Source: a virus. From it: DNA of 64,000 bases. Both the position numbers and the translations under genes were made by a program. The first letter of the stretch is position 1, and each line of letters starts with the position of its first letter. Positions 11,451-63,971 of this stretch are shown here, piece by piece. The stretch covers positions 1 to 64,000 of the IMG/VR virus record IMGVR_UViG_3300027741_000027; one strand, 5' to 3'. The notes below the pieces were generated by a model. That model was given only the letters and a program-made list of their open reading frames with translations, made no database searches and was not told where the DNA came from.

Positions 11451-14400
11451 AGCGTTTGAACATAAAAACGCCTTGTTACAGCATCAATTAATTTATCATT
11501 AACATAAATTTTTAAAATTACTGTATGAAGACAATATTCATCTTCATTTGCGGTAAATGATGTACCATCAGGCGCATAATTAAATTTGTAACTGATTGAC
11601 TTACCCGTTTGAACGGTTCCATCATCAAATAACCATTGGTACTTAACATAAGCAAAGTCAGCAGTGCCATTTGTCCAATTTTCGTCTCCAGTAGTAACAT
11701 TTTCAACCGTAAAGGTGGTTTCGGTTGGAACGGATTTAATTTTAAAAACGCCATTATAACCCGCTATATCTGAACCAGATATTGTAACAAAATTGTTTGG
11801 TTGAAATACATGTTTGCTATTTGTTGTATAGGTTACTGTAGAACTGTCTCCCGTCGCGTTAGTAATTGATAAAAGTTTTCCTAAATATCCTTGAAAATTA
11901 TAAACAATTCCGGCAGTTAATCCGTAAGTATCAAAAGAATTTCCACTAGTCTCATAAAGCATTGAACTTGGATCAGGGGTTGCAATTCCGCCAGTACCAG
12001 TAACAGTAACAGAACTTGTTACCGTAAATTGAGTTGAAGTGGCGCTAGCTACAAGAGCACTAGTTAAATTTAAAGTTGAGTTTGAATTATCAGTAATAGT
12101 AATCGTTTCGCCCGCAATAAAATTATTGGCGGCGATGTAAGTAATAGTTGTTCCGTTTCCTGAGGCGCTTGTAATTGAAGCAGGTTTACTTACTTTAATT
12201 TTAGTCAAAGAGCTGCCGTCAGAAACCGGATCTGCTGACGTAGAAATATAAAAACCAGACGATTGTTTATTCAAACGAGTGTCAGTAATATTTCTAAAAG
12301 AATTAATACTATCAGACCATTGAAACGCTCCAAGGTCGGCATACTTAGGCACAGACTTAACTTTTTTAATTGACGCAAATTGAGTTTTAGCTACTCCCTT
12401 AATTTGAAGATTTTTGCCACGCTCACTAAACATCAAACCTTCATTCATGCTTGTATTGTCAAGATCATAATCAACCCAATCATCAATAGCATTAGGTTTT
12501 GCACTCCATTGAACCTGAGGAGAGTTAATTGTTAAATTATTAATAGTGATTTGATTTTTACGCAATGTTTCTTGAACAACATACAATTTGTAATTACCAA
12601 ATTTTAAATTATTTAAAATTAAATTAATTTTATTAATTTGATTAGATTTAATATTGCCCAAAGACAAATCAATTCGAATTTCAATGTCTTTCTCTGTTGA
12701 CAGAAGATAAGCAGAAATGTCATTTTTATTATTAACAAATAAATTAAAATCAATTTTTAATTTTGAATTGTTAACGGTAAAATCATTGGTGCAAAAACCT
12801 TGAACCATATCGCCAGAAGTAACCGTTGAAATAACATACTCGCCAGTCTTTGTATTTGATAAAATTGCGCCCGAACCAAATGCGTAACCCTTAGTAAATT
12901 TTCTTATAGCAGGGCTTGATTCAGAAAAGACTTGAACTCCATTGACTGGAGTTTTTGATTTAAGGGGATTAGAAACATACTCTGCATAAGATGCTGAATT
13001 GACTGCAATTTTTCTAACATAGGATCGGTTATCAAGAAGGTTGGCCCACCAACCAAAACGACCTTTGCGCCTTTGAATTTTAGGATCATAAATCCAACCT
13101 GTATCATGAATAACATTGTAACCATTTATTTGAGATAACTGATAATCATCAGCCCAACCTGCATTAGAATCACTGGAGGTCGAAGTAGTATTATCCCAAT
13201 ATCCAATATTACCTAAATTATATAATTGATTCATTGTCAATCCATCTGATTGATTGTATTGATTGTTTAAACGATTAATGATAACCCTAAATTTGTTATC
13301 TTCTAAAAGAACATTGAATTCATAATTTGTATTAGCAAGTAAACCACCGGTTATTGAAATGTTATAATAAACGGCGCGACCAGTTTGATTCTCATCTTCA
13401 AATTTAATTGTAGCCCCTGTAGAATTCCAAGAAACAGAAACAAAATACAAATGAGTAGTAGTTTTATCATTTGAAGGCGCAAGTTTTGGAGATAGTGTTA
13501 ATGGTCCGGGAATATTATTTTGAGTTAATACGTTTAAAGCAGATTGCGTTTTACCAAGGTTGCCTGTTTCTCTTAAAATCAATCCAATTTGATTATCACC
13601 AGACGTTGGTAATAATCCAGTATTAAAAATCATTGAAGCATTAATATTTACTGGTTGAGGGTCCTTGCTACAATCGCCGATTATCATACTATTAGTTCCG
13701 GTAGTAATACCAGCATAACTTTTAATCATTGGAGGAAATTTTGCCCACAATGCTTCTATGGTAGTAGTAGCAGTTGAACCTACTGGTCCGGGACTAAGAC
13801 CAATAGTTTGAACAGAACTTGTTTTTGTTAAACGATTAGTTTGAGTGTTCCAATCAACAACAGGATACACATAATTTTTGCTCACGCAAATAATTTGAGA
13901 ACAATAAAATGTACCAATCGCTCCCGAACGAGTAATTTTTAATTGAATTTTATTTAACCCTTTAAGAACATTATAAGGAATTGAAGACAAATCAACAGAA
14001 GCTTTATTACTGTTGTTTAAAACATTTAAAGTTATTTCACTAGAGAAAGCGTTAGCTGAAGAAAAAGTTACTTGAACAGATTGAATGGGGTTAGATGAAT
14101 AATTAGGAAATGCAAAATCAATTTGACTATTAGATATACTAAAATTAGTCAAATCAACTGCCGCATCAAAACTTGACTCTGTTGTAATAACAGCATTTGT
14201 TGATAGATCAATTGCTAAACAATTTTGTTTAATACCTATTGCATCATTATACGCAACAGTACCATTAGTCCAAACTTCACCCTCAGTTGTTTTAGAATTA
14301 GTCAAAAGTTCAGTCATTGTATAATTGTCAGCCCAACCTGCACTAGGATTACTGGAAGACGGTGGATTCGCGTCATTATTCCAATATCCAATAGCACCAA

Positions 14401-27242: not shown

Positions 27243-29099
27243 CTAATCTTGCGATGGAGATGTGCCAGTTTTATTTGACGCCGTTTTATTTGATAATTTA
27301 CCGGCTGCGTTTTTTAAATACTCCGACGCCTTATTTAATAATTGACCAACGTCAGCGTTTCCTAAAGGATCCACCCCGCCAGACAGTGCGTTTTTATAAT
27401 CTTGACCATTGCCTGAAGCTTTTGCAGTCACAACCGCCTGAACATAACTTTCCATTGTATCCGGGTTGTCCATAATGTGTTTTGAAAATTCTCCTCGTTG
27501 TTCATTTGATATACCTGCATTTGCAGATATTTGATTAACAATACCCATTCTTTCGTTAGCACTCATATCAGCAAACTTTTTAACCCCAGTCTGAGCATTG
27601 TCTCCGTACTGACTGGCAATTTGTGTTGCGGTGTTATACCCTTGAGCTGTTTTAGGATCAAGGGAAAGCATATGACGTAAAACTGGAACGCTTGGAAGAG
27701 TTGGATCTGTATTAACCATTCTTTGTAATGCGTCTAAACCCTTTGCAGAGCCGGGATCGACTCCACGACCCCCATAAGCAGCATACATATCTTTAAGACC
27801 AGACGTTGTAGCTTGAAGTTTTTGACCTGCGGTTGCGTCTTGAACGGCCCAAGGATTTATGCCCATTTGCGAAAATTTTGCTCTAATCATTGGGCTTTCT
27901 TGCATTTTATTAAGAATATTTGGATCTACGCCAGTTGCAGAAAGTTGACCTATATACGATTGAGCCGCAGATCCAACACCCCTTGTCCCGCCCTGCATTG
28001 CTTGAGTTGTATAGGAGGCCATTCCATTATAAAGTTGATCCATATTCATACGAGCGCCCGCTGCCGCAGGACCGACTCTAGAAAGAGAATCGGTCAATTT
28101 ATTAACTTCGTCTGAAGATTGAAATCTAGTTCCGCCGTACAGACCGGCAGTAATCGGATTTAACATGGCGGGATTTGCATTAACCACTCTTGCATACCCT
28201 TCTTGCATTTGCGCAAATTCAGGGCTAGAATCATTAAAACCTGTGCTAAAAAGCTGTTGTCTAATACTCGTTGCTTGATCTTTATTGATACCGGCTCTGG
28301 CAGACAAAGCTCTTGTCAAAACTGAACTTTCGGCTCCTCTGATTGTTGCAGCATTAACTGGAAATCTAAAACCCATTCCGCCAACAATTGGAACATTTGA
28401 AGGAATTGATAAATTGCCCCCTGCGGGTGATACACCTTGAGAAGCTCCGACCGATTCAAAACCCTGAATGCCTCTATACCCTTGTTTTGCTAATCCATAA
28501 CCCCTTGACATTATTGGAGCATATTCAGCGGATCTAGATAATAGGGCTTCGGCGCTATTTAACCTTGTAGTGGTTGAATCAAAAATAGGTTTTCCAGTAG
28601 AGGGGTTAATTCTCTTAGCATTTTGCTTTCCAATTACATCTGCGCCTAATTGAAACATTTGCCCCATGCTCATTTGTCCTCCAAAAATAGCTGGATCTAT
28701 TATTGATGATGGATTTGGATTAACTCCAAGGGTCGCCCTTTGCATGGCTATTTTTTGTTTGTTTGAAACAATTTGTCCGCGTTGATCTTTATAATCTGCT
28801 GCGATTACATCTGCGGGTTTAAAAAGACCTCCGAGCGCACCAGTGACTCCTTTACCCAAATCGGCACCTTTACCATAAGTATAAAGCAGGGCTTGTTCTT
28901 TTAACTGTTTTACAACTTCTGGGTCGCGCCCTAGTCCCCCGGCTCCGCGACTAATTTTACTACTTTCTTCAGATTTTTTAATGTTTTCACTGACGGATCG
29001 TCCAATTGCTTCAGCTAATTTTACAATTAATTGCGCGTCAAAATCAGAAATAAATGCGGCTGGATTGTCGGGATTATTTGGGTCGCGTTCTTGAGTCAT
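27243..29099 (-). CDS. Tape measure protein
   Basis: 618 aa, G/A/Q-rich helical; directly downstream of the frameshifting tail chaperone. Confidence 0.7.
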   Translation of the reverse strand: MTQERDPNNPDNPAAFISDFDAQLIVKLAEAIGRSVSENIKKSEESSKISRGAGGLGRDPEVVKQLKEQALLYTYGKGADLGKGVTGALGGLFKPADVIAADYKDQRGQIVSNKQKIAMQRATLGVNPNPSSIIDPAIFGGQMSMGQMFQLGADVIGKQNAKRINPSTGKPIFDSTTTRLNSAEALLSRSAEYAPIMSRGYGLAKQGYRGIQGFESVGASQGVSPAGGNLSIPSNVPIVGGMGFRFPVNAATIRGAESSVLTRALSARAGINKDQATSIRQQLFSTGFNDSSPEFAQMQEGYARVVNANPAMLNPITAGLYGGTRFQSSDEVNKLTDSLSRVGPAAAGARMNMDQLYNGMASYTTQAMQGGTRGVGSAAQSYIGQLSATGVDPNILNKMQESPMIRAKFSQMGINPWAVQDATAGQKLQATTSGLKDMYAAYGGRGVDPGSAKGLDALQRMVNTDPTLPSVPVLRHMLSLDPKTAQGYNTATQIASQYGDNAQTGVKKFADMSANERMGIVNQISANAGISNEQRGEFSKHIMDNPDTMESYVQAVVTAKASGNGQDYKNALSGGVDPLGNADVGQLLNKASEYLKNAAGKLSNKTASNKTGTSPSQD

Positions 29100-38863: not shown

Positions 38864-39952
38864 TCAGGCGAGGCCTGAGATGTCTAGCTTCTTGCTTGTT
38901 GTAGTGGTTGTGTAATCAGAGATTGCACCGCCCTTAACAATACGTGAAAGGCCGCGAGCGTTAAGGATGAGCATGCCGATAAGTTCGTCCATGACCCAAC
39001 CCTTCCAAAATGTTTCAACATTGTGGTTCTCTTCAACGTCAAGTGAGTACATGACGGGCATAACACCGACGTAATCAGGCTCAGCGGTAAGGAATACCTC
39101 GCCTTGTGGGACGATGATTGAACGCTGGATCTGGAATTCACCGAATGTGGTGATCTTCTCTCCACCGAATACCTTATCCTTGAATTCAAAGCCAGTTACG
39201 TTGAGATCCCAGTTGTAGAAATCGCGAGCGTCAGCAGGGTGAATGATGACACGGCGAGCTTCAAGCTGGTTGATCTCGATTTGTGAAACAGCGCTGTAAA
39301 AGTCGCTAGGCTCAAGTGGGTTACCATCACCAATAAGGATGGTCTGCTCACCTGATGAACCAGCAGCAATACCGGTCTGACGACCACCGGTAGGAGCAAC
39401 GCCAGCAATAGCGTCATTGCCAGTTGCATTGCGAACCTTGCCAAGCTCAGCAATAGCAGCCTCAAGAAGAAGGATAAGACGGGCGTCTTCCTGCTTCTGG
39501 ATTGCCTGACGGCTCTCGTCCTGTGCGTACTCAACAGCGTTTACACGAAGGTAGTACAGATCTTCCTTACGGATACGTGGGAACGTAGCGATACGGAAAA
39601 GCTGAGGGAATGCCTGCTTGCCTTCGAATGGGGTGATCTTAACTTCCGAGTCGGTCTGGTTAAGGATATAAGCCCTACCTAGATCGTCAAGGATGTCGTA
39701 AGGCATAAGGGGACCGCGCTCAAGAGTATCTTCAATAAGAACATTACGAGTAATGCCCTCATAACGAAGACGAATCTGAATAGGACCGATCATACCCTGA
39801 CCGATACGACGCATTGCGTTCGATGAATCCTTTAGGATTGACTGAAGCTTCTGTGCCTTTGCTTCCTTGGTAAGCTTAGGTGCGTTAGCAAGCTTAGCCT
39901 CGTAATCGGCTGATGAAACAGCCTTGCGTGATGTAATTTCCATATTAATCAT
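38864..39952 (-). CDS. Major capsid protein
   Basis: Likely start 39952 or 39943 (AAGGA RBS); GMIGPIQIRLRYEGITR, QIEINQLEARRVIIHP, WVMDELIGMLILN; biased codon usage. Confidence 0.85.
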   Translation of the reverse strand: MINMEITSRKAVSSADYEAKLANAPKLTKEAKAQKLQSILKDSSNAMRRIGQGMIGPIQIRLRYEGITRNVLIEDTLERGPLMPYDILDDLGRAYILNQTDSEVKITPFEGKQAFPQLFRIATFPRIRKEDLYYLRVNAVEYAQDESRQAIQKQEDARLILLLEAAIAELGKVRNATGNDAIAGVAPTGGRQTGIAAGSSGEQTILIGDGNPLEPSDFYSAVSQIEINQLEARRVIIHPADARDFYNWDLNVTGFEFKDKVFGGEKITTFGEFQIQRSIIVPQGEVFLTAEPDYVGVMPVMYSLDVEENHNVETFWKGWVMDELIGMLILNARGLSRIVKGGAISDYTTTTTSKKLDISGLA

Positions 39953-39962
39953 ATTCCTTTCT

Positions 39963-40727
39963 TTATACCAATAGGTCCACGACAATACGGCTTGTGGCTG
40001 GGCTGTCAATTAAACGAGCAACAGGCATACGGTTTACACCGGGGGTCGTCATGCTTACAAGGCGACCATCTACACCTGCGTACAGGTAGATGCCGCTGGT
40101 GTTATTGACAGTACCTGAAATGGCTGTTGAAATAGCCTGCGCACCAAATGCATTAGTTGCAGTAGTTGCAGTGGTCTGAGCGGTTCCACCAAATGTTGGA
40201 GGATAAGTCAGAGACTTAATGGTGTTAGTGGCGCCGATACCGCCAGAGGCACCAATGGCCGTTGTGACAACAGATGTGCCGCTTGAGCCAGTGCCGTCGC
40301 TGTCGAACGCAGGTGAGAGAATCTCAAACACCGAGTCCGGACCGCGCCAAACACCAACTGAATTTTGAAGAGAGTCTCCTGAGAAACCCTCGTCAAGGTC
40401 GCCGCCAACAAAGTTGGCAAGAAGACCAAATGGTACTTCATTTTCAGCGCCAGTAGCGACTGTAACTGATTCGCCAAGAGCACCCGAGGAATCCTTGGCA
40501 CGAACTAGAACAAGTCCGGGAACAAGGCTACCCTTGAGAGTAAAAGCAGAAGCCTGACGAGCAGTGGCACCAGCAGTAACCGAAGTGGTTGGAAGCTGGA
40601 GCGAACCGTCAGATGCACGAAATCCACTATGTAGATTTGCAGCATAAGGCGTAGCCTGAGTCTGGGCATACAACGGCCTACAAGTGCGCTTCTGATACTT
40701 ATTAGCTAGATTCTTTAGTCTAAGCAT
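39963..40727 (-). CDS. Capsid decoration/cement protein
   Basis: Directly upstream of MCP; PFGLLANFVG, GVWRGPDSVFE, LYAGVDGRL. Confidence 0.55.
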   Translation of the reverse strand: MLRLKNLANKYQKRTCRPLYAQTQATPYAANLHSGFRASDGSLQLPTTSVTAGATARQASAFTLKGSLVPGLVLVRAKDSSGALGESVTVATGAENEVPFGLLANFVGGDLDEGFSGDSLQNSVGVWRGPDSVFEILSPAFDSDGTGSSGTSVVTTAIGASGGIGATNTIKSLTYPPTFGGTAQTTATTATNAFGAQAISTAISGTVNNTSGIYLYAGVDGRLVSMTTPGVNRMPVARLIDSPATSRIVVDLLV

Positions 40728-40843: not shown

Positions 40844-43390
40844 TTACATAAACAGAGCAGAGTCATCTGAATCTGCCTGAGTTGTTGCGGGAGCAGTACT
40901 TGCCTCCCTAACTAGAGACGGAAGCCTCTTAGCTGTCCGCGCCGACTTCTTAAGGCCCGCTGTCTTAACGCGATTAGCGTAAATCAGTGAAGCCTCAACA
41001 ACTGCGGGCGCTGCCTTTTCAAGCTCAGCAACTCTTGCATACTTCTGTGAAGCGTCAAGAATGCCAAGTTCGATCTCAGTATCAGCCAACTTGAAGGCCG
41101 ACATGATATGAGCGGTGCTATCATTACCATCACCAAAAGCATGATCCTTAGAATCAACTCCAGTTGGGTAAAATTCCTTACTATTCTGATCGTGATAGAA
41201 ACTCTTATTCTGAGGATCTACTGGATCAGCCTGACGAGTTACCGCGCTATTACCATCTGGGAAAGTAGCTGTTGGGCCAGAATCCTGAGTGGTAATTGCA
41301 TATGGTCCCATGCTATCTGTTACATCAATGCGGTCATCAGCCTTACCCATTGGGTCGGAAGGCTCCACGCCGCGAACATCTGATACAACCCATGATGAAG
41401 CCTTTGCTGCTGGCTCATGCATTGTAAGAGGCGTAGCGCTATCTGAGTTAAATACCTGATAGCTACTTACGTCAGTTACTGGGTCTTGCTGACCGAGTGA
41501 ATCGCCCTCATTTGCACCAAAAGTATCTGTGTGGATAGCTTCAATGTTTTTTGAGTGTTCATCGCCCTGATCAACTTGTACTGTCTTTTCATTGCCAGTG
41601 CCAACACCAGAAATGCCACCAATATCGGTAACATTAACTTGAGCGTCAGCCTTGGATGCGTCTTCATTTGAAGCTCCACCAACGCCACCAGTTCCGACTA
41701 CATCAGTATTGTAGTCAGGCTTGGCAACAGCCGGTGCGCTTGTCATTGCGTCAGCGATATGTGTTTCCATGTTGTTCCTTTTTCTGTTACCAGCAGCCGC
41801 AAGGAAATCCGATGCGGTGCGAACTGATGATGTGACGGGCCTTATTTGATCCTTCACAACATAGTCTTGCGGCTCATTAGACGCTGGTGGCGTCTGAACC
41901 GGAAGTATTGGTCGTTCAATTTTATTGATTTGTGAAATTTTTGTGTCGAATACTGTCCATTCGGCATCTGTTACATGAGAGAGCGTAGGCAAATTATTAG
42001 TATCAACATCTAAAGTTGATAAAGATTCTTCATTTGCTTCTTCTGATTCGTCACGCCTTTTAGCGGCGCTAAGATCTGGATCGCCAAAACCTTCAGGCTC
42101 TGCTTCATAACCACAAACGTCGCACTGTGGGCCATCCATAATTTCGCCACAAATGTCGCAAACCTTATCTTCGCGCAAAGTATCTACTTCTTCAGGAGCG
42201 CGAGTTTTAGTGATCTGTGGCTTATCATTAGAAGTTTTTTCACTCTTATCATGGCCAACTTCTTTGCCAACAACGGATTCCGCCCAAGAGCGACCTGAAT
42301 CTCCGCCCCAAAGCATCCAAGCGGTTTTCCAAGGTGAGTTACCTTTGCCGCCATCATCTGGGCGAGTTTTATCATGACGCTCAAAGAATGAATGCATACG
42401 CTTAACATGATCAAGGCTTAGAGCCTTGCCTGAAGCGATATCATGAGCACGACCTTTGGTTGCAGATTCAAGACCATCGCCAGCCTCGCCAGCTTCAACC
42501 ATTTCAAGACCACGACGAGCATTGTTTTGTACTGACTCTGGTGGAGTAAACCCTTCAGACGCAAATTTATTCATAGAAGCTTCCTTTACATTAGAACGTA
42601 CCTCGCGGATAAGAGCCGTCTCATCGGCGGGGTCAAATACTGCTGAAATCTCAAAGAACTTAATGCCGTAGCAGTCCTCATATGATTTCTTTGAAGTTTT
42701 ATGACCCGTCTCAGGATCGATGTAATCGCACATAGCGCCCTTCATGCGAACGTGGTTGCAAAACTCATCAGGAGTAGTTGCAGAGTTCTTGCAGATATTG
42801 CAAACAGAGCGCTCTACGTCACATCCCATTGAGAAACCATCAATGCCATTCTTGGCATTCTTTGATCCGTCAATAATTGCCTTAGCAAGCTTAGGGAATG
42901 ACTTAGCATCTACTTCAAGAAGAAGCTCAACCCAAGTTGGGGGAGTGTGATTAGAAGGAGCGTCGCGATAATAAGAATCTTTTTGAGCGGCAGTTTTATG
43001 ATCGTCTACATGAAGCTTTGCATCAACAATAACCCCACGCGCACGGGAGGGATCTGAATTATGATGATCTACAAAGATTGGCTTGCCAATGAAAGTAGAA
43101 AATCCATATTGATCATTAGCATTGGCGTTAACAGTGAATCCGCCAGTAGAAGAAGTGTGACGATCAAAAACATCCTGACCGCCAGCAAGCTCTACTGAGG
43201 GCCAGCCGTCATGATTTTTATTTACTCTTGAAGAAATGGCACGAATACGAGCGTAAAGATAACCATCTTCAGTACGATAATCTTCAAAAGCAGCAATTTT
43301 AGAAAGAGAAGCAGAGGCATCGCGCTCTGCTGAACCTTTAATCTCTAAAACTTTGCTGACCTCTAAAGAGGCGTATTTTGTGAATGCCAT
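40844..43390 (-). CDS. Prohead protease/scaffold fusion
   Basis: FIGKPIFVDHHN...RGVIVD, VELLLEVD, GFSMGC, FFEISAVFDPADETA; long acidic scaffold-like C-terminus; upstream of the capsid genes. Confidence 0.75.
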   Translation of the reverse strand: MAFTKYASLEVSKVLEIKGSAERDASASLSKIAAFEDYRTEDGYLYARIRAISSRVNKNHDGWPSVELAGGQDVFDRHTSSTGGFTVNANANDQYGFSTFIGKPIFVDHHNSDPSRARGVIVDAKLHVDDHKTAAQKDSYYRDAPSNHTPPTWVELLLEVDAKSFPKLAKAIIDGSKNAKNGIDGFSMGCDVERSVCNICKNSATTPDEFCNHVRMKGAMCDYIDPETGHKTSKKSYEDCYGIKFFEISAVFDPADETALIREVRSNVKEASMNKFASEGFTPPESVQNNARRGLEMVEAGEAGDGLESATKGRAHDIASGKALSLDHVKRMHSFFERHDKTRPDDGGKGNSPWKTAWMLWGGDSGRSWAESVVGKEVGHDKSEKTSNDKPQITKTRAPEEVDTLREDKVCDICGEIMDGPQCDVCGYEAEPEGFGDPDLSAAKRRDESEEANEESLSTLDVDTNNLPTLSHVTDAEWTVFDTKISQINKIERPILPVQTPPASNEPQDYVVKDQIRPVTSSVRTASDFLAAAGNRKRNNMETHIADAMTSAPAVAKPDYNTDVVGTGGVGGASNEDASKADAQVNVTDIGGISGVGTGNEKTVQVDQGDEHSKNIEAIHTDTFGANEGDSLGQQDPVTDVSSYQVFNSDSATPLTMHEPAAKASSWVVSDVRGVEPSDPMGKADDRIDVTDSMGPYAITTQDSGPTATFPDGNSAVTRQADPVDPQNKSFYHDQNSKEFYPTGVDSKDHAFGDGNDSTAHIMSAFKLADTEIELGILDASQKYARVAELEKAAPAVVEASLIYANRVKTAGLKKSARTAKRLPSLVREASTAPATTQADSDDSALFM

Positions 43391-43419
43391 ATCGCCTCTT
43401 AAGTGTGGGATAAACTAAA

Positions 43420-43596
43420 TTATTTAGTTACAATGTCCCGAATTGACTTTTCTGCGTCATAAGTCAATGATTTAAAGGTGGCTTTGCAGCCCTTTTCTTG
43501 ACGCTCAGGAAGACCCCAAGATTCAATTAAACCAAGTACCCGGCCCCGAAGAGTATTAAACTCTTTAATAATAATTTCTTCGGAGTCAAGGCTCAT
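43420..43596 (-). CDS. 58-aa protein (absent from the ORF track)
   Basis: MSLDSEEIIIKEFNTLRGRVLGLIESWGLPERQEKGCKATFKSLTYDAEKSIRDIVTK; ATG 1 nt after the upstream TAA; fills the gap. Confidence 0.7.
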   Translation of the reverse strand: MSLDSEEIIIKEFNTLRGRVLGLIESWGLPERQEKGCKATFKSLTYDAEKSIRDIVTK

Positions 43597-43597
43597 T

Positions 43598-44620
43598 TTA
43601 TCGAGTCACTAAAGCGTGAATATAATCTCCGTCGCGCTTAATGCGAGCTACGCGAAAACCTTGATAAGTATTTTCAAGCTGAGCTTTAGCCATTCTAATG
43701 CTTACATCGCGATTAGGATCAGCCTTAGAAGCTGTAAATGACATCACTGGGCCTGAAGCTGAGGGGGATGCAGGAGCGGCTGCATTTGATGCTGTTGAAG
43801 CGCCGCAAGAGCATGGTTGACCGGGAGGGCAAGTGCAGCTTTGACCAGACATAGGAGCGCCTACTGGACCTGAGGCAGTGCCCATAGCAGGTGCGCCCAT
43901 AGCAGCAGGAGGCATTGAAGCATTAGCTTCACGTTTGCTGTCGCAATGCTCACAAGCACCCTTTTCGCATTCGCCTTCGCAGCTAGCAGTTTTAACTGAA
44001 GCAAATGAAGGTGAACCAACAGGGGTCATACCGGGCTTGTTAGGAACCTCACCGGGCTTAAGTTTAGCGCCTGAACCTGTTGGAAGAGGCTCTGATTTGC
44101 TAGGACCCTTTGGACGCTTAGGAGCAGGTGCAGCAGGAAGATCAGCAGATGGACCCTCTGGCATTTCATCCATATCTTCGCCCTTTTCGCTAATTCCAAG
44201 AGCATCAAGAAGAAGGTCAATCTTCTTCTCAAGTTCAGCAATCTTTTTATCTTCTGAGCGCTCATGCTTTTCTACATGATCTTCGCCCTCATGCTCTTCC
44301 ATTTCTTCAAGGGGTGATTCATTCATTTCATGCATGTCATCATGAAGGTCGGCGGGCGATTCATCAATATCTTCAAATGCGCCAGCGGCAGTCTTCTTGC
44401 AATGCTGACAACCTTTATCCTCGCAATGCTCGCAAGGCTTTACATCTTCATTTGAAGTCTTAGGAACAAGAAGCTTGGCAACCCAATGACCGCCCTGATT
44501 GTGAATGCTGGCAATTTTAGTTCCAGCTTGGAACTGACTATGATTCTGAAGCGAAAGAAGGGCTTCATGCTGAGTGAGTCCTGAAGCGGACTTAACGATG
44601 CGGGTTGTATAATCCATCAC
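43598..44620 (-). CDS. Putative internal head protein with Cys clusters and H/E- and P-rich tracts
   Basis: CEHCEDKGCQHC, CEGECEKGACEHC, CTCPPGQPCSC; AAAGGA RBS. Confidence 0.65.
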   Translation of the reverse strand: MMDYTTRIVKSASGLTQHEALLSLQNHSQFQAGTKIASIHNQGGHWVAKLLVPKTSNEDVKPCEHCEDKGCQHCKKTAAGAFEDIDESPADLHDDMHEMNESPLEEMEEHEGEDHVEKHERSEDKKIAELEKKIDLLLDALGISEKGEDMDEMPEGPSADLPAAPAPKRPKGPSKSEPLPTGSGAKLKPGEVPNKPGMTPVGSPSFASVKTASCEGECEKGACEHCDSKREANASMPPAAMGAPAMGTASGPVGAPMSGQSCTCPPGQPCSCGASTASNAAAPASPSASGPVMSFTASKADPNRDVSIRMAKAQLENTYQGFRVARIKRDGDYIHALVTR

Positions 44621-44653
44621 TTGTTATCCTTTAGATTTAAGTTGTTTTTAAGG

Positions 44654-47600
44654 TCAGCAACCGAAAAGAAAGTAATCGGGGTCTGAATCGGCATAGTGAG
44701 TGCCTTCTAAATTAAGCTTGTCTGAATTGCGAGCTTCGCCATACTCATCAATAAGTTCACGCTGCTGCATAGGTGTGTAATGCTGTCCGGCTGTTTTTAG
44801 TGACGAAACATTACGCCCTTCTTGATGCTCTTTTACTGTATAAATTTGTTGCATGTAATTTTCACCGGCTTCTACGGTTGGCACATGATGATATGGGCAT
44901 TCGCCGGGTTCAAAATCTCCGCCCTCAATATTAAATTGACATGCTGGAGTTTCTGGGCAAGCCCAAAAACCAACGGTTGCCTTCTTTGTAGAACTACCGA
45001 TTTGAATATGAGGCGTTGAAAGGTCTGAATCCTGACCGGGAGCAGTGACGTTCTTAGTGTCAAGATTTTCCTCAATGCCAGCCGGATTATCTTCTGACCC
45101 AAAATCAGTTGAAACAAAACGATAACCGTTAAGATCTGCTTCTTTGCGATCAATTTCAATTGTGGTACGAAGTCCGCCATTAGATTCAATTTCATAAACA
45201 ACGGCATCTGGCTTAACTTCAACTACGCGACCAACATCTGGGATTTCATAATTATGAGCATAAATTTCATATTCCTTGCCCTCTTGAAGCGGTTCGCCAG
45301 AATCGTCTGCCCAAGTATGAGTAGAGTCATCTTCTTCTAATTCTTCAGGCTCGCTAAAAGAATCAACAGATCCGGGCATAACTTCCATTGGGCCTTCATC
45401 AAGATTCAAAGCCTGATAAAAACTAGCAGTTGTGCTTGTATCTGTTGAAGTACCATCAGAAGGAATTAGATTCTTATCATCCCATTTATGACCGCATGAG
45501 CGACACTCGCATCCACCGCTAGATTGATTTACAACACCGGTAGTGTGACCATCACATTTAGGGCATACGCTAGCGGCAGAATCGGCAGCATGTTTAAAAA
45601 TAGATTTAAGCATATCATTTCTTACATGAGACATGATTGGGGGCTGCATAGCGCCGGGGCCAGCAGGGTTAAGATCAGCAGGCGTAGGTGCACTCATATC
45701 AGGAATTCCGGGTGCAGGACCACCGGGGCCGAGAGGACCGCCCATACCCATATCTCCACCGGGAGGTGCTGGTGCGCCGGGTGCGCCCATGCCCTGCATT
45801 TGCTCTTCTGGGCTAGGAGCCATATCTTCTGGAGCGGCATCAAAAAGCTCATCTTGATTAGCAATCTCTGCCCAAATTTTAGTAATCTCTGGATTAGAAG
45901 GCTCATTAAACATCATATCTTCTAATTGGGCAACTTGTTCTTCATCAAGTTCCCCAGCCTCAAATAATTCGTGAAGGCGCTCAATAAATGCATTTTGTTG
46001 TTCATCTGTATGAGGACCCTGTGTATGTGATCCTTGTTTCTTTTGTTGAATTTGTTGCATAATTTGTTGTTCAGTCTGCTGCTGTTTTTGTTGATTGTTT
46101 TGAGTTAACTGCTGAGCTTGCTGTTGTTCTTCCGGAGTAAGGGGAGCAGTCTTATTAATTAGGTTAGGGGAAGTCTGTGTTTCCCAGCCTGCCGAAGCTC
46201 CAGCAGCATTTGCAGGACCAGCTTGAGGATCAAAACCATGAGTTGAAGGATCTATTACATTTGGTTTTTTCTGTTTAGGCATTTGAGTAGGATCAGGAGT
46301 TAAAGGCATTCCATCTCTTGGAACAAGGGTTTTTGGTCCAAAAACGGCAACGCCTGTTTTTTGAATATCGCGGTCGGATCCATTTAAGATTAGTAAAATT
46401 TCGTTTTCTTCAGGAGCAACATCGGGTAGATCAAGATAATCTGGAAATAATTCGTTAAACGCTTCATGAAACTCTTGAAGGTCGGGGTCGTCAATGCCTG
46501 ATTCTTCGGAAGAATAAAAATGTAATAATTTTGGTAAAGCTTTTGTAAGAATTTCAATTAAATGATCCTCACTATGACTTTCTTTAAATGGCTTATCTTC
46601 GCCCGTTCGACTTTGACCGATTCCATTTACAGAAAAATCTTTTTGCCAATATTGATTATCTCCGTCTGTCTTTGTATGCGGATCTACATTGTGAGGATCG
46701 GTAGTATCTTTTCTTTCACTAATTGAACTTGGGCTTTCAAATTCGTCTCCATAAGTAGCATTTTTATCAAAAGATAAATATTGCCATCCAGTGTCCGCAG
46801 GTTGATCAAAAGATTGTCCTCCGCTCATAGCAGGCTGTCCTCCGCCACCAGAGTTTTCGCCATCATTGCCTTCACCATCATCACTTTCGTCACCAATGCC
46901 AAGTAATTTTTTGACGCCTTCAAACGCAGCCATATTTTTACCTTTACTAAGGGCACCTTTAGCCAAAGAAGAAAGTCCTCCTAATAAGCGTCCGCCACCA
47001 AGAGCGGCCTCACCTGCGCCCAGTGCTTCTGCGCCTAATCCAGCGGCTCCAGCAGCCTCAGCAGCACCAGCAGCACCAGCAGCGGCTCCGCCAATTCCTA
47101 AACCAGACAGTGCAGCAGCGGCGGCTTCCGGTAATAAAGCTAAAAGTGGCCAAAGGGCTTCTTTACGAACTGATGCGGATTTATTTAAAGCGGATAAATC
47201 GTCAGTTCTTGCAATGTGATTAATAATGTCGGCCATATGAGGATCCTCTACTCCGATTTGAACTGAACCTTGTGTAATTTTTGGTCGAATAACTGACCAA
47301 TACTCTTTATAAGGCCGAAGTTTGCCATTTTCCTCTGGGTTCTCTACCCAAGCATTAAGAGCGATTAAAGCCTCATGTAAATTATCTGTAATACCTTCAG
47401 GCATTGGCATAGAATATTTGTTAGCGGCCTCTGTAAGCTCTTTAGAAGGCTCTACAACGTCAACGATATCCCAGCCTAGTTGCTCAACAGGAAAATTATC
47501 TGGTTCTTCATCAAGCCAAGGCGCTGTAGCAACTTTATTTGTTGATTGATTAGGCTCAGCTTGAGCGTTTTCAAAATCTTCAACAACTTGATCCCAAAGA

Positions 47601-48043
47601 TCTTGATTGTCATTATCTCCGGGATCGCTCCAGCTATGCTCGCCACTACTACGAACAGAGCCAAGCATTTCATCTCTGCCCATAGAGCGATCAGATCTAT
47701 CTCCGGGCTTCCACTGATTATCTTTTACAGGATGAGTTTCGCCAAGGCCAGCAGGTTCAGTTGCTTCATCAAGCTCAGCGATTTCTTCCCAATCCATTTC
47801 ATCCTTAAGCCCAGCAAGAATTCCTTCTTTCAAAGAATTGCCGCCCTGATCTTTACCATCTTCAAAAGTATTGCGTTCTTTCATTTCTTCTTCAACGGGA
47901 TTGGGCCGCCCGCGATAAGGACGATCCCGACCCTCAGTTTGCACTGTCTCAGGTTGAATTTCGCCTTGTTGAAAGAAAACCGTTCGCCCATTTTCAGGCG
48001 ATTCAATTTCGTCGTAGTGGTGCTCAGGACCTTTATGATCCAT
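44654..48043 (-). CDS. Large acidic putative internal head/ejection polyprotein
   Basis: 1129 aa mosaic of acidic, G/A-hydrophobic, Q-rich, P-rich and Zn-ribbon segments. Confidence 0.65.
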   Translation of the reverse strand: MDHKGPEHHYDEIESPENGRTVFFQQGEIQPETVQTEGRDRPYRGRPNPVEEEMKERNTFEDGKDQGGNSLKEGILAGLKDEMDWEEIAELDEATEPAGLGETHPVKDNQWKPGDRSDRSMGRDEMLGSVRSSGEHSWSDPGDNDNQDLWDQVVEDFENAQAEPNQSTNKVATAPWLDEEPDNFPVEQLGWDIVDVVEPSKELTEAANKYSMPMPEGITDNLHEALIALNAWVENPEENGKLRPYKEYWSVIRPKITQGSVQIGVEDPHMADIINHIARTDDLSALNKSASVRKEALWPLLALLPEAAAAALSGLGIGGAAAGAAGAAEAAGAAGLGAEALGAGEAALGGGRLLGGLSSLAKGALSKGKNMAAFEGVKKLLGIGDESDDGEGNDGENSGGGGQPAMSGGQSFDQPADTGWQYLSFDKNATYGDEFESPSSISERKDTTDPHNVDPHTKTDGDNQYWQKDFSVNGIGQSRTGEDKPFKESHSEDHLIEILTKALPKLLHFYSSEESGIDDPDLQEFHEAFNELFPDYLDLPDVAPEENEILLILNGSDRDIQKTGVAVFGPKTLVPRDGMPLTPDPTQMPKQKKPNVIDPSTHGFDPQAGPANAAGASAGWETQTSPNLINKTAPLTPEEQQQAQQLTQNNQQKQQQTEQQIMQQIQQKKQGSHTQGPHTDEQQNAFIERLHELFEAGELDEEQVAQLEDMMFNEPSNPEITKIWAEIANQDELFDAAPEDMAPSPEEQMQGMGAPGAPAPPGGDMGMGGPLGPGGPAPGIPDMSAPTPADLNPAGPGAMQPPIMSHVRNDMLKSIFKHAADSAASVCPKCDGHTTGVVNQSSGGCECRSCGHKWDDKNLIPSDGTSTDTSTTASFYQALNLDEGPMEVMPGSVDSFSEPEELEEDDSTHTWADDSGEPLQEGKEYEIYAHNYEIPDVGRVVEVKPDAVVYEIESNGGLRTTIEIDRKEADLNGYRFVSTDFGSEDNPAGIEENLDTKNVTAPGQDSDLSTPHIQIGSSTKKATVGFWACPETPACQFNIEGGDFEPGECPYHHVPTVEAGENYMQQIYTVKEHQEGRNVSSLKTAGQHYTPMQQRELIDEYGEARNSDKLNLEGTHYADSDPDYFLFGC

Positions 48044-61557: not shown

Positions 61558-61623
61558 CTACAGCCCAATGTCTTCAGGCTCAATAATAATATCTTCAATA
61601 TCAAAATCAATGTTAAAATTCAT
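61558..61623 (-). CDS. Putative 21-aa acidic peptide
   Basis: TAATG-coupled to the upstream stop; MNFNIDFDIEDIIIEPEDIGL. Confidence 0.35.
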   Translation of the reverse strand: MNFNIDFDIEDIIIEPEDIGL

Positions 61624-63971
61624 TAATTAACCGCCTCCCTTCCTATTTCTGGATTCAATGCCCAAATTTCCGGTGTGCTAAGCGGGCCGTCTCCAAGCGC
61701 CAAGGATTCAATAATATGCTGCATATGCCTTTGACCGGGGCGGCCAATAACCTTATCCTTGGTATCAGGATGATGATAGAAAGGCATTAGCATGCTAGAG
61801 AACCCAGCATCAGCCTTCTTTCTAAAAGGAATGGCATCCTTAGGATTAGATACGCCTTCAAGTCTATCCCATTGTTTGCCAATTTGCTTGCGAATATCTT
61901 TAGTATCATTAAACCAGCTTGGAATAATTGGTTTTTCTGATTTCTTTGATCGATTATCCCAATCAATGCCGTCATGAGGAACAGGAAGAAGAACGTGCAT
62001 GTGATCTTTTGAAGGATGATGACCGGGCGCATGCCTCATAAGATTCTTTAGCCCTCTAGAAAATTGACCAAGAGGAAGGTGCCCGTATCCAGAGGCATCT
62101 CTAGCGCCCTGTAATTGACGTTCGGCCTTAAAGTAATCCCTTATTCCCATATCATCTTTTTTATGCCCAAGGGCCTTTAAAATGTCTGGGTTAATTGACC
62201 CAAGTTGACTTGTATGAGGCGCAAGGAAAAACCAAGCTTCATCAACCTGATGTGGCTCCATGTCATCAGTAAAAAACTGCTTCATAAATGAAGACCTGAA
62301 GTGATGACCCTTGCCGCCCTGATCAATATCTTCAAGTGCAATTTGAACAATATTCTTAATGTTCTTGCCAATGTCAGCGATTGGTTTTACTTGATGAGCA
62401 AGGGGCGGAGAGTAAATAGCTGAATCAGGATGTTTAGATTCAAAGAACATTTTCTCATTACCAAAATCATAATCTTGATTAACTTTAGCATTGGTCATGC
62501 GCTTGAGCCTTTTGATAAGTCGCTTAGTTGCCTCACGATGAATATCATCTGAAGTGGCATCTTCGCCAAGTTTCTTCTTTGCCTCGCGCTCTTCTTCTGC
62601 CTTCATATTCAAAAGATGATGATCTGCCAAATCACTAATTTGATCATGCCTCAATCCTCCACCAATATTTTGAATATGGCGCTTAAATGGCATCATATAA
62701 GGATCAAGTTCTTTATTTGCCTGCAAGTAACCGCGAGCATTATTATGTGTATCGCGGGCGTGAGTAAGAGCATTCCAAATACGAGCAGGATCATCTACTG
62801 AACCGGGAAGGTGATGAAGTGCTTGATAATGCTGGGCGTGGCCGCGTTCGTGCTTATGAGGTTTCAAAAATGCATTAGAGAAGGCGTTACTAACCGCTTG
62901 CTCGCGGCTTGCATCATCTAGTTCATGCCAATTAGATTTAATTCCACGGGTCATATTGGTAAGGCCGCGACTATTAAGTGGATCAACCATTTCACCATCG
63001 GCATTACGAATCCTGTGCCAATTATAAGCATTGTTATCTGCTGGAACAACGCCTGTTTCATAACCATCATTTGGATCAAGCAAATTATCAAATGATGAAT
63101 TCTTATCAAAGTTGGCATCGTTAGGAATTTTAGCCATAGGGCCGGGAACAATAGTTTGTGAAGGATGAACGGGGTGATGATAAGGCTCAGGCGCTTCGGG
63201 GTTGTCAAATATTTTTAAGAATGCAATCTTCTGCTGAGATTGTGATCCATAATAAGAATTAAATGCACCTTGACCAATAACTTCAGTAAACAATGCCTTT
63301 TGAGCAGTGTAAGTCAAAAGTGGAGCGTGAGCTTTAAATGCTCTATTGATACCAAACCAAGACCAATCACCGCCAGAGGCACCATGACCTAAAATGTCAT
63401 GAGCAATGCGAAAATCTACAATTTGATTAATGCTCCAAACGGGATGGGATGCATTGGCCCTAGAAACAGTGAAATGACCCTTTTGAGTAATATCTTCGGC
63501 CATCTCCGAGAAAGTTTTATAAGGCAAAGGGTTGTCAGTGATTTCAATCTCAATTTCATTTTGAATAATCTCTACACGACGACGACAATCTTCTGCAAGC
63601 TCAGTCCAAGCAGAAGCTGCTTTTTTATCATACATTTTGGCGTCAGCATATTCGTGCGCAATGACCTCTTGAAGATCAATGTATGAATCATGCCAAGCTG
63701 CTGCTCTTGCGTTCATAGGCATACGGAAACTATAAAGGCGCTGAATCATATGCAAAAGATTACCAGCGGCTGTTTCCTGAGTATTGCCAGTAGCTTCTAG
63801 CTTTTCACCATGAACGCTAGTGGCTTTGACCTTATAGCCATCTTTTTTATAGTCAGAAGTATGATCTACCTCCCACCCAAGATCCTGAATTTGATTCAGG
63901 ATCTCAGGCAGGGGTGTAGTAATCCCAACAAAGGCGGAAGTAACATCAATAAATTTGATGTCTTCCCACAT
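61623..63971 (-). CDS. 782-aa multidomain protein, probably head-associated
   Basis: AGAGG RBS; FRIAHDILGH zincin-like segment; first gene of the minus-strand run in this window. Confidence 0.75.
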   Translation of the reverse strand: MWEDIKFIDVTSAFVGITTPLPEILNQIQDLGWEVDHTSDYKKDGYKVKATSVHGEKLEATGNTQETAAGNLLHMIQRLYSFRMPMNARAAAWHDSYIDLQEVIAHEYADAKMYDKKAASAWTELAEDCRRRVEIIQNEIEIEITDNPLPYKTFSEMAEDITQKGHFTVSRANASHPVWSINQIVDFRIAHDILGHGASGGDWSWFGINRAFKAHAPLLTYTAQKALFTEVIGQGAFNSYYGSQSQQKIAFLKIFDNPEAPEPYHHPVHPSQTIVPGPMAKIPNDANFDKNSSFDNLLDPNDGYETGVVPADNNAYNWHRIRNADGEMVDPLNSRGLTNMTRGIKSNWHELDDASREQAVSNAFSNAFLKPHKHERGHAQHYQALHHLPGSVDDPARIWNALTHARDTHNNARGYLQANKELDPYMMPFKRHIQNIGGGLRHDQISDLADHHLLNMKAEEEREAKKKLGEDATSDDIHREATKRLIKRLKRMTNAKVNQDYDFGNEKMFFESKHPDSAIYSPPLAHQVKPIADIGKNIKNIVQIALEDIDQGGKGHHFRSSFMKQFFTDDMEPHQVDEAWFFLAPHTSQLGSINPDILKALGHKKDDMGIRDYFKAERQLQGARDASGYGHLPLGQFSRGLKNLMRHAPGHHPSKDHMHVLLPVPHDGIDWDNRSKKSEKPIIPSWFNDTKDIRKQIGKQWDRLEGVSNPKDAIPFRKKADAGFSSMLMPFYHHPDTKDKVIGRPGQRHMQHIIESLALGDGPLSTPEIWALNPEIGREAVN

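Follow-up and report, generated by a model that had tools for sequence, protein, structure and literature searches.

The head genes of an uncultured phage raise the question of whether several head proteins are cut by one protease at one short motif and, if so, which motif this would be. The phage is represented by IMGVR_UViG_3300027741_000027, a single 136,021-bp contig, and the window analysed here is its first 64 kb. The source is a Bxz1-like (Ceeclamvirinae-related) myovirus from lake metagenomes; its nearest isolates are the cluster C mycobacteriophages (Bixzunavirus) and myoviruses of Gordonia and Rhodococcus, and Bacillus phage G is more distant. The minus strand between 38.8 and 48.0 kb is a head-assembly module, transcribed in the order 1129-amino-acid (aa) protein, 340-aa protein, 58-aa protein, 848-aa protease-scaffold protein, cement protein and major capsid protein. 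An earlier reading made from the letters alone (the sequence-only reading) had described the 848-, 340- and 1129-aa proteins, together with a 782-aa protein, as apparent polyproteins that the protease would cut at K/R-x-(A/S/G) sites, releasing small proteins for packaging or ejection.

The present analysis points to a narrower version of that proposal. The 848-aa protein almost certainly begins with a prohead protease of the T4 gp21/assemblin fold (MEROPS clan SH), and an internal start at Met541 very probably makes its last 308 residues separately. The core [K/R]-[T/V/L]-A-[G/S/A] probably, if with some reserve, marks cut sites of this protease at several conserved positions.

Protease domain and probable nested scaffold of the 848-aa gene

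The 848-aa protein is a homolog of gp93 of mycobacteriophage Cali. A tblastn search with it retrieved cluster C mycobacteriophages, the 'prohead protease' of Rhodococcus phage E3 and gp19 of phage G, and a profile of the protease domain matched 3057 proteins at E≤1e-3 in a library of 1.8 billion proteins. The AlphaFold2 model of this domain, built from 41 diverse sequences, reached a predicted local distance difference test score (pLDDT) of 85.6 and a predicted template-modelling score of 0.81; an earlier model from 17 sequences, with a pLDDT of 54, was too poor for use. Among 48,161 chains compared by VIA-align, T4 gp21 (5jbl) came first (Z 9.9, 130 residues, 3.1 Å, 20% identity), and the herpesvirus proteases of varicella-zoster virus (1vzv), human cytomegalovirus (8j3s) and Kaposi's sarcoma-associated herpesvirus (1fl1) reached Z 9.8, 7.3 and 6.7; the best unrelated chain had only Z 6.0, below all gp21 and herpesvirus proteases. 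Model and structural search thus place the domain among the gp21/assemblin beta-barrels. The top rows of Foldseek were herpesvirus proteases too, yet at E values of just 0.06–0.6, and a profile search of the Protein Data Bank sequences with the protease gave no match.

Residues H109, S187 and H213 are invariant in the 41 sequences and follow the His-Ser-His order of assemblins; by this order and invariance they are the candidate catalytic residues. The domain also holds four invariant cysteines (C197, C200, C211 and C240), which probably form a structural zinc site, and we know of no counterpart of this cluster in T4 gp21 or in the herpesvirus proteases. The gene follows those of the 1129-, 340- and 58-aa proteins and precedes the cement and major capsid genes, in keeping with the usual place of such proteases between portal/head accessory and capsid genes. 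This head-gene order is the same across 35 related loci from IMG/VR (labelled L001 and so on) and in Cali (L036, NC_011271), where the equivalent genes are gp92, gp93, gp94 and gp95.

The annotations of some homologs differ from this assignment. Cali gp93 (L036 8923-12783) is a 'tape measure' in RefSeq and the homolog of Gordonia phage Skog a 'LysM-like endolysin'; both labels are probably mis-annotations due to inserted modules. In the L008 ortholog (10001-13684), 330 residues are inserted into the protease domain, after S-M-G and before the next Cys, at the place of residues G189/C190 of the window protein. The inserted stretch begins with Cys, ends with H-N before the next Cys, is without K-x-A flanks and, from its sequence, looks like an intein.

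Behind the protease domain, the stretch between K269-E-A-S and K385-T-S-N holds unrelated modules in relatives, from <10 to 290 aa long. The conserved scaffold part follows and starts with a zinc ribbon; VCG is the most enriched tripeptide among relatives. Five Met columns are conserved in the family alignment, the start codon included. Met541 is kept, with a Shine-Dalgarno (SD)-like sequence 5–16 nt upstream, in all 20 of the 20 aligned relatives; such a signal precedes 15% of all internal ATGs and none of 53 at the conserved Met columns 188, 216 and 418. The residues coded at this signal vary (KRNN, AGDK, KETQ, GEN, KDK and others), and in Cali gp93, from a genome of 65% G+C, AAAGGAAC stands ahead of Met889. 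At the sequence level, the frame therefore holds an internal in-frame start with its own translation signal. No conserved internal Met with an SD sequence was found in the 1129-aa and 340-aa genes. Phage G encodes its protease (gp19) apart from a scaffold-like protein, gp21, which ends in the common K-K-T-A...S-L-F tail. Part of the polyprotein appearance of the 848-aa protein is thus explained without any cutting, because one frame very probably encodes two proteins, the second from its own ribosome-binding site (RBS) at Met541. Short family members had been considered as products of gene fission at the release-like site; they turned out to be truncated fragments and give no evidence of it.

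The K-x-A motif in the window and in relatives

All the tetrapeptides listed by the sequence-only reading are present in the open reading frames (ORFs) it had named, those of 848, 340, 1129 and 782 aa, which were scanned here. Their loose form is at chance level: [KR]x[ASG] occurs 32, 13, 20 and 19 times in these proteins, respectively, versus 24.6, 10.5, 19.9 and 19.3 in composition-preserving shuffles (P 0.047, 0.22, 0.53 and 0.58), and with the listed fourth residues P is 0.15–0.59. Moreover, several of the listed sites (KIAA31, KTAA132, KIAS35 and others) sit in folded domains and are not supported. The form [KR]xA[AS] is found 8 times versus 1.9 expected in the 848-aa protein (P≤0.001) and 4 times versus 0.9 in the 340-aa protein (P 0.013), and 2 times versus 1.0, not significantly, in the 1129-aa protein. 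In the 782-aa protein it occurs 4 times versus 1.1 (P 0.018–0.038, nominal only), and 3 of these 4 sites are the overlapping RAAA/KKAA/KAAS of residues 89–117. These single-genome P values are optimistic, because the shuffles underestimate [KR]xA[AS] genome-wide (73 observed versus 43).

Such numbers bring in chance, that is, composition: linkers rich in Lys, Ala and Ser would yield K-x-A words, of which the eye picks those at borders. The chance level of the loose motif and the genome-wide surplus of [KR]xA[AS] over shuffles agree with this, as do the negative outcome of both boundary tests given below and the definition of the narrower motif after inspection of the data. Against it, KTA comes first when every tripeptide of the 848-, 340- and 1129-aa proteins is scanned without bias, with 7 copies versus 0.74 expected (P 1.3e-5, borderline alone once corrected for 8000 tests). 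Of the 11 genomic copies of [KR]TA[AGS], 6 fall within these three head proteins, which are 5% of the proteome. Only the narrow motif recurs in several head proteins. Counts bring it out clearly in the 848- and 340-aa proteins; in the 1129-aa protein, ortholog conservation does so and count does not. The basic K-x-A motif proposed earlier thus survives as the core [K/R]-[T/V/L]-A-[G/S/A], and its loose form does not.

The enrichment is replicated in relatives that had not been used to define the motif. In 65 full-length representatives with pairwise identity <50%, counted from the end of the protease domain onwards, KTA is found 110 times versus 15 expected and RTA 65 times versus 11 (6–7 fold); KLA, KVA and RVA are enriched 3–4.6 fold. 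The tripeptides VCG and TLR have higher ratios, each from a single conserved position, whereas KTA is multi-copy. The 718 [KR]xA sites have a defined context, with V/F at P4, T (3.5-fold) or L/V at P2, G/S at P1' and L (3.1-fold) at P2'. In a 21-sequence alignment, 20 [KR]x[AS] positions are conserved, versus 5 for the reversed pattern of identical composition.

Some of these sites keep fixed positions. [KR]-[YF]-A occurs within the first 12 residues in 114 of 136 diverse relatives (84%, background 18%), which in the window is K5-Y-A-S8. A site 5–24 residues past the last protease motif is present in 71 of 104 relatives (68%, background 24%), and in the window protein the model confidence falls after residue 268, in the stretch with K-E-A-S. 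Near the other end, 62 of 89 relatives (70%, background 11%) have V-[KR]-T-A-G, with a median distance to the C-end of 44 residues, and Cali gp93 carries RTAG there. The site at R524-T-A-S527 has Leu instead of the basic residue in several relatives. [KR]TAG is found ahead of the tails of two unrelated proteins, the scaffold and the 1129-aa protein, as far as mycobacteriophage Cali. With positional conservation at 3–6 times background, added to the scan, the replication and the forward-to-reversed contrast, chance is largely refuted for the narrow motif, for which we hold it very improbable; the loose motif and the 782-aa protein are still explained by it. The recurrence of a basic-x-Ala motif at conserved positions of head proteins is supported, both here and in hundreds of relatives.

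KTAS was also observed near the C-ends of two other proteins. In a 2504-aa protein (genome 91509-99023, plus strand) it follows a CxxC motif and lies 33 residues from the end; in a 618-aa tail-region protein (window 27243-29099, minus strand) the distance is 14 residues. These could be further substrates or chance.

Table 1. Features of the head-assembly module and the 782-aa gene, with window coordinates
Feature	Position	Strand	Basis
1129-aa modular protein	44654..48043	-	C-terminal homolog of Cali gp92
K288-S-A-S before Ala/Gly-rich hydrophobic segment	47171..47182	-	K-x-[AS]-[SNH] in 6 orthologs
Ala/Gly-rich hydrophobic segment, residues 297-368 of the 1129-aa protein	46940-47155	-	sequence
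K427-N-A-T directly before YGDE(Y/F)E.PSS block	46754..46765	-	[KRH]-x-[AS]-[TS] in 6 orthologs after wholly variable region
K669-Q-G-S directly before (H/N/D)TQGPHTDEQQ block	46028..46039	-	[KRI]-x-[GA]-S in 6 orthologs after variable region
K1020-K-A-T and Zn module (1024-1082)	44798..44986	-	presence/absence among close relatives
K1083-T-A-G1086 ahead of C-terminal tail	44786..44797	-	K[TVL][AS]G-x-x-[YF]-x-P in close and distant relatives
Conserved 43-aa C-terminal tail, ends ...DYFLFGC	44657..44785	-	most conserved part of 1129-aa protein
340-aa head-module protein	43598..44620	-	8 orthologs aligned
K54-T-S-N57, Zn-module insertion point	44450..44461	-	8-ortholog alignment
K76-T-A-A79, first Zn module end	44384..44395	-	alignment
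K210-T-A-S213, conserved F-A-S-V-K-T-A before variable Cys-rich insert	43982..43993	-	alignment
58-aa gene between 340-aa and protease genes	43420..43596	-	missed by the sequence-only reading
848-aa protease-module-scaffold gene	40844..43390	-	phrog_2774 E 5.5e-52; phrog_18299 'head maturation protease' E 4e-18
Protease domain, residues 1-268	42587..43390	-	AlphaFold2 model and invariant residues
K5-Y-A-S8, candidate self-processing site, disordered N-terminus	43367..43378	-	residues 1-8 pLDDT <50
Four invariant Cys (C197, C200, C211, C240) in protease domain	42668-42802 (residues 197-240)	-	alignment
K269-E-A-S272, 'release-site-like', protease-domain end	42575..42586	-	conserved [KH]-x-[AG]-x after last protease block
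Inserted module, residues 273-384	42239..42574	-	phrog_2859 domain E 3.7e-22
K385-T-S-N388 opening conserved scaffold part	42227..42238	-	[KH]-[TQ]-[AS]-[DE]-N-x-x-P-Q, 17 diverse relatives aligned
Zinc ribbon CxxCG-x7-CxxCG, residues 411-427, scaffold-part start	42110..42160	-	family alignment
R524-T-A-S527, conserved [R/L]-T-A, 17 residues ahead of internal start	41810..41821	-	alignment
Putative internal RBS AAGGA (41776-41780) and ATG of Met541 (41768-41770)	41768..41780	-	5-base spacing
Predicted nested in-frame scaffold gene, 308 aa, Met541-Met848	40844..41770	-	conserved SD and ATG
K809-T-A-G812, 'maturation-site-like', 40 residues from C-terminus	40955..40966	-	conserved V-[KR]-T-A-G-L
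C-terminal tail (basic stretch, R-L-P-S, acidic stretch, ...A-L-F-M)	40847..40954	-	putative capsid-binding end
Cement / minor capsid protein	39963..40727	-	PF23968 Phage_cement_3 E 3.4e-14; Cali gp94 homolog
Major capsid protein (true start near 39943)	38864..39943	-	phrog_2522 E 3e-87
R-I-G↓Q in capsid protein, aligned to phage G gp27 cut	39797..39808	-	alignment, ...A-M-R-R-I-G↓Q-G-M-I-G-P
782-aa protein	61623-63971	-	unannotated PHROG match only

Module borders in the 340-aa and 1129-aa proteins

The 340-aa protein combines small conserved domains at both ends with a helical, acidic central part and with Zn modules that vary; distant relatives have versions of 234–290 aa. Neither a family match nor a usable match in ESM Atlas was found for it. 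After K54-T-S-N57 (P-K-T-[SA]), each relative carries 0, 1 or 2 Zn modules, every one ending in K-K-T-A-[AST]. Further on, a Cys-rich insert of 52–81 aa is present in the window, L001, L003, L007 and L013 and absent from L008, L009 and L019, and it always stands directly after K-T-A. At the start of the ORF (44617-44620), GTG is directly followed by ATG, and the copy in ESM Atlas begins at this ATG (residue 2); the true product of the gene is probably 339 aa long.

Orthologs of the 1129-aa protein occur in 26 of the 35 related loci and are 626–1608 aa long where complete. With Cali gp92, it has only the C-terminal tail in common, where QRTAGRHYSP is the equivalent of the K1083 site. This tail matches the extreme C-ends of two PHROGs, phrog_2940 and phrog_30974, and the gp92-like tails follow the pattern [KR]-[TL]-A-G-x-x-[YF]-x-P-x-E-Q-R-E-[LF]-I-D-E...G-T-H-Y...[FL]-[FW]. 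The parts upstream of it are unrelated to each other and include GNAT, PEP-utilizer and Zn-ribbon domains, or LysM and SWIM in Cali. Among them, L023:1754-6580 and L033:4027-7515 have a PEP-utilizer mobile domain before the common tail, and the former also a GNAT acetyltransferase. Just ahead of the tail, the window, L007 and L008 have the Zn module 1024–1082 with a site on each side, and L001 and L003, which are without the module, have a single K-[VT]-[AS]-G.

Two other segments of the 1129-aa protein deserve mention. The Ala/Gly-rich hydrophobic segment behind K288-S-A-S resembles glycine-zipper or membrane-active segments of ejection or tape-measure proteins, and Cali gp92 has a similar one, as has the L014 ortholog at its N-terminus. 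At residues 12–48 (47900-48010, minus strand), relatives have a zinc ribbon, CPECG ... CPECGYD, in the place of which the window has SPENG and a deletion; judged from these residues, the N-terminal zinc module of the window protein is decayed.

The motif was said to bracket the modules of these proteins. This holds for a few large modules that are present in some relatives and absent in others, the Zn modules included, and with the intein-like L008 insertion excluded, inserts of at least 50 aa have the motif at 6 of 8 flanks; two automated boundary tests did not bear it out. The bracketing, which rests on a handful of large modules and on judgement, is suggestive.

The gain and loss of modules exactly adjoining the motif could also be read in another way, with the motif as a recombination joint: a linker-coding sequence by which modules are swapped through homologous recombination, with no role at the protein level. 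The inserted module brings a second copy of the motif, and domain content differs widely among relatives, as such joints would predict. Conservation, however, is seen at the amino-acid level across genomes of 40% and 65% GC, with K-T-A in the lake phage and R-T-A in Cali; the motif is kept at fixed positions without module turnover, at the N-terminus and 44 residues from the C-end; and its residue context is defined. We consider recombination joints hardly probable as the explanation.

Predicted processing, known systems and neighbouring genes

The strongest competitor of cleavage comes from the tails. More than 60 diverse relatives and Cali gp93 retain one pattern at the C-end of the scaffold: K-Y-x-R-x-A-E-L-E and V-[KR]-T-A-G-L, then basic residues followed by R-[LM]-P-S, and lastly acidic residues and a terminal or near-terminal L-F. 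The scaffold and 1129-aa tails may have a common role in docking to the capsid interior. In the main rival explanation, [K/R]-T-A-G-L itself is the docking signal, a basic helix-turn that binds the inner capsid or the portal and is common to the scaffold and the 1129-aa protein, so that both enter the procapsid; the proteins would stay largely intact or leave independently of the protease. The best-conserved copies do lie in very basic C-terminal regions by the tails (R-L-P-S ... L-F) of two unrelated proteins, and Gly at P1' with Leu at P2' would suit a helix cap and turn. But the motif recurs far from the tails, and outside the last 90 residues its excess persists in the 65 relatives (1.6 versus 0.34 per protein, 4.7-fold); copies of it stand in the disordered first residues of the protease, just past the folded domain and at either flank of swappable modules. 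A phage with an active-looking protease of the gp21 fold is expected to process its scaffold, and the related phage G cuts its capsid protein after Ala. The docking signal is, in our judgement, unlikely.

The cut in phage G is the closest direct comparison. Its capsid protein gp27 is shortened from 282 to 255 aa, as determined by N-terminal sequencing (PMC5646251). The cut maps to ...R-V-A-L-A↓Q-A-M-A-N-P, after Ala27, with Ala at P1 as the motif predicts, and the phage G protease gp19 is 34% identical to the window protease. The major capsid protein of the window is 51% identical to those of Myrna and Cali, and its orthologs start at residues 20–23 of the long ORF. A cut at the aligned R-I-G↓Q, an R-x-G bond, would remove a 48-residue N-terminal arm.

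We propose cleavage at the motif in the following form. The 848-aa product would start with a serine protease of the gp21/assemblin fold, followed by a module that can be swapped, the zinc ribbon, the long scaffold region and, last, the tail; the internal RBS at Met541 would supply the last 308 residues alone as bulk scaffold. Fusion and separate scaffold would co-assemble with the capsid protein via the common tail, which would carry the protease and the inserted module into the procapsid. The 1129-aa protein probably gets there too, because it has a comparable tail of its own. Cleavage by the protease would then follow Ala (or Gly/Ser) within [K/R]-x-A↓[G/S/A]. The cuts would fall near its own start, at K-Y-A↓S; just past its domain, at K-E-A↓S, which resembles the herpesvirus release site; at K-T-A↓G, some 40 residues before the ends of the scaffold and the 1129-aa protein, a maturation-like cut that would detach the scaffold from the shell; at the motif copies that flank variable modules, Zn and other; and in the N-terminal arm of the capsid protein, at R-I-G↓Q. 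That the modules become packaged or ejected cargo is a rather doubtful extension. Equally tentative is the wider picture, in which the Bxz1/phage G-like lineage (thousands of members, in mycobacteria, lake actinobacteria and megaphages) would use an Ala-specific 'K/R-x-A' code to free its protease, strip the scaffold tail and cut out zinc-finger and enzyme modules as head cargo delivered with the DNA, motif and tail forming a portable 'address and scissors' cassette by which any protein could be loaded into a capsid.

Several points weigh against cleavage at the motif. The loose motif is at chance level not only against shuffles but also in frequency against other proteins. At all indel boundaries of three alignments, the motif is found at 71 of 240 versus 72 expected, a test in which many 'events' are alignment noise within non-homologous inserts, and a stricter test of boundaries between core blocks and variable regions gives 10 of 26 versus 8.9 expected. 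Many of the conserved [KR]x[AS] positions belong to the folded protease domain, and not all of these can be cut sites; distant gp92-like proteins are enriched only about 2-fold; and the relatives are homologous, so that counts across them are not independent. The phage G cut, the only one sequenced, has Ala and not Lys/Arg at P3. The searchable literature holds no cleavage data for Bxz1, Myrna or E3, and for phage G the capsid N-terminus only; no virion proteome with cut sites was found there for the relatives. All cuts are predicted, and the conservation of V-K-T-A-G-L could reflect a capsid-binding helix-turn and not a scissile bond.

Among known systems, the herpesviruses make a UL26 protease-scaffold fusion and a nested UL26.5 scaffold, with release and maturation sites of the consensus (V/L/I)-x-A↓S. 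The locus described here has the same fold, His-Ser-His order, protease ahead of scaffold and internal in-frame scaffold start, as well as candidate sites just past the protease and some 40 residues before the C-end, with Ala proposed at P1 and a small residue at P1'. It differs in the proposed Lys/Arg at P3, where the herpesvirus sites have a hydrophobic residue, in its cuts, which are predicted from sequence, in the swappable modules and zinc ribbon between protease and scaffold, and in the Cys cluster of the protease; sequence similarity is undetectable. Lambda C/Nu3 and P2 gpO are phage protease-scaffold fusions, and the lambda scaffold is also made from an internal start. They share with the 848-aa gene an N-terminal protease and a C-terminal scaffold in one frame. 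Lambda C is a protease of the ClpP/SppA-like S49 group and does not have the gp21/assemblin fold, and the gene described here is far longer and modular.

Phages T4, phiKZ and SPN3US process many head and internal proteins, by gp21, gp175 and gp245, respectively, at L/I-x-E or S/A/G-x-E (PMC10052503, PMC5694885). As in those phages, the protease has the T4 gp21 fold, and one short motif is found in several unrelated head proteins, preceding conserved mature domains. There, P1 is Glu, scaffold or core proteins are separate, the cuts are proven by mass spectrometry and packaging or ejection has been shown; here, Ala is proposed at P1 and both cuts and packaging are hypothetical. Phage G and Cali are true homologs, with proteases 34–38% identical and, for Cali, a capsid protein 51% identical. 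K-T-A words occur in gp19, gp20 and gp21 of phage G, and [KR]TAG with tails in gp92 and gp93 of Cali. Phage G differs by its separate protease and scaffold genes, and Cali by the 'tape measure' label of gp93 and by the other modules (LysM, SWIM) of gp92 and gp93. No published cut-site motif was found for proteins of either phage. Polyvalent proteins (Iyer et al. 2017, PMC5512222) are likewise large proteins of shuffled unrelated domains, and have been proposed to be carried in virions and processed by proteases; that article treats metallopeptidase domains within the proteins and no prohead-protease motif, and in the passages searched prohead protease appears only in a reference title.

Prohead proteases with a short shared motif and protease-scaffold fusions with nested scaffolds are, then, already known. 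New would be the predicted specificity (basic P3, Ala P1), the swappable modules between protease and scaffold and the reach across a very large lineage; we found no paper that describes these features. What the comparison yields is a sound prediction that stays within a known class of system and does not define a new one. If the cuts were confirmed, they would give a readable head-maturation rule for a large, largely unannotated lineage that includes mycobacteriophages used in classrooms and relevant to therapy, in which gp93 is still 'tape measure' or 'hypothetical'. They would extend the parallel between herpesviruses and tailed phages from the fold to the gene layout, with nested scaffold and release- and maturation-like sites, and offer a way to predict which giant modular proteins become separate virion proteins. 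The test is cheap, since cultures exist of Bxz1, Cali, Myrna, E3 and phage G.

Searches over the rest of the module returned little. Among the head proteins, only the cement protein matched Pfam; the inserted module and the 1129-aa tail had no Pfam match, and Rfam gave none over 36–50 kb. The 782-aa protein, placed by the sequence-only reading in the same set, is without a [KR]TA site, nothing ties it to the head module in this genome, and ESM Atlas gave no usable match to it. It was considered as the portal and rejected, the portal gene being at 109983-112256, outside the window. In L014, a protein with an N-terminus similar to that of the 782-aa protein lies one ORF upstream of the gp92-like gene, with a 143-aa ORF between them. 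The 58-aa protein has no PHROG match, and orthologs of its gene (EFNRLRGRL..GLP.KQERG...LKSLSYD) stand at the equivalent place in distant relatives.

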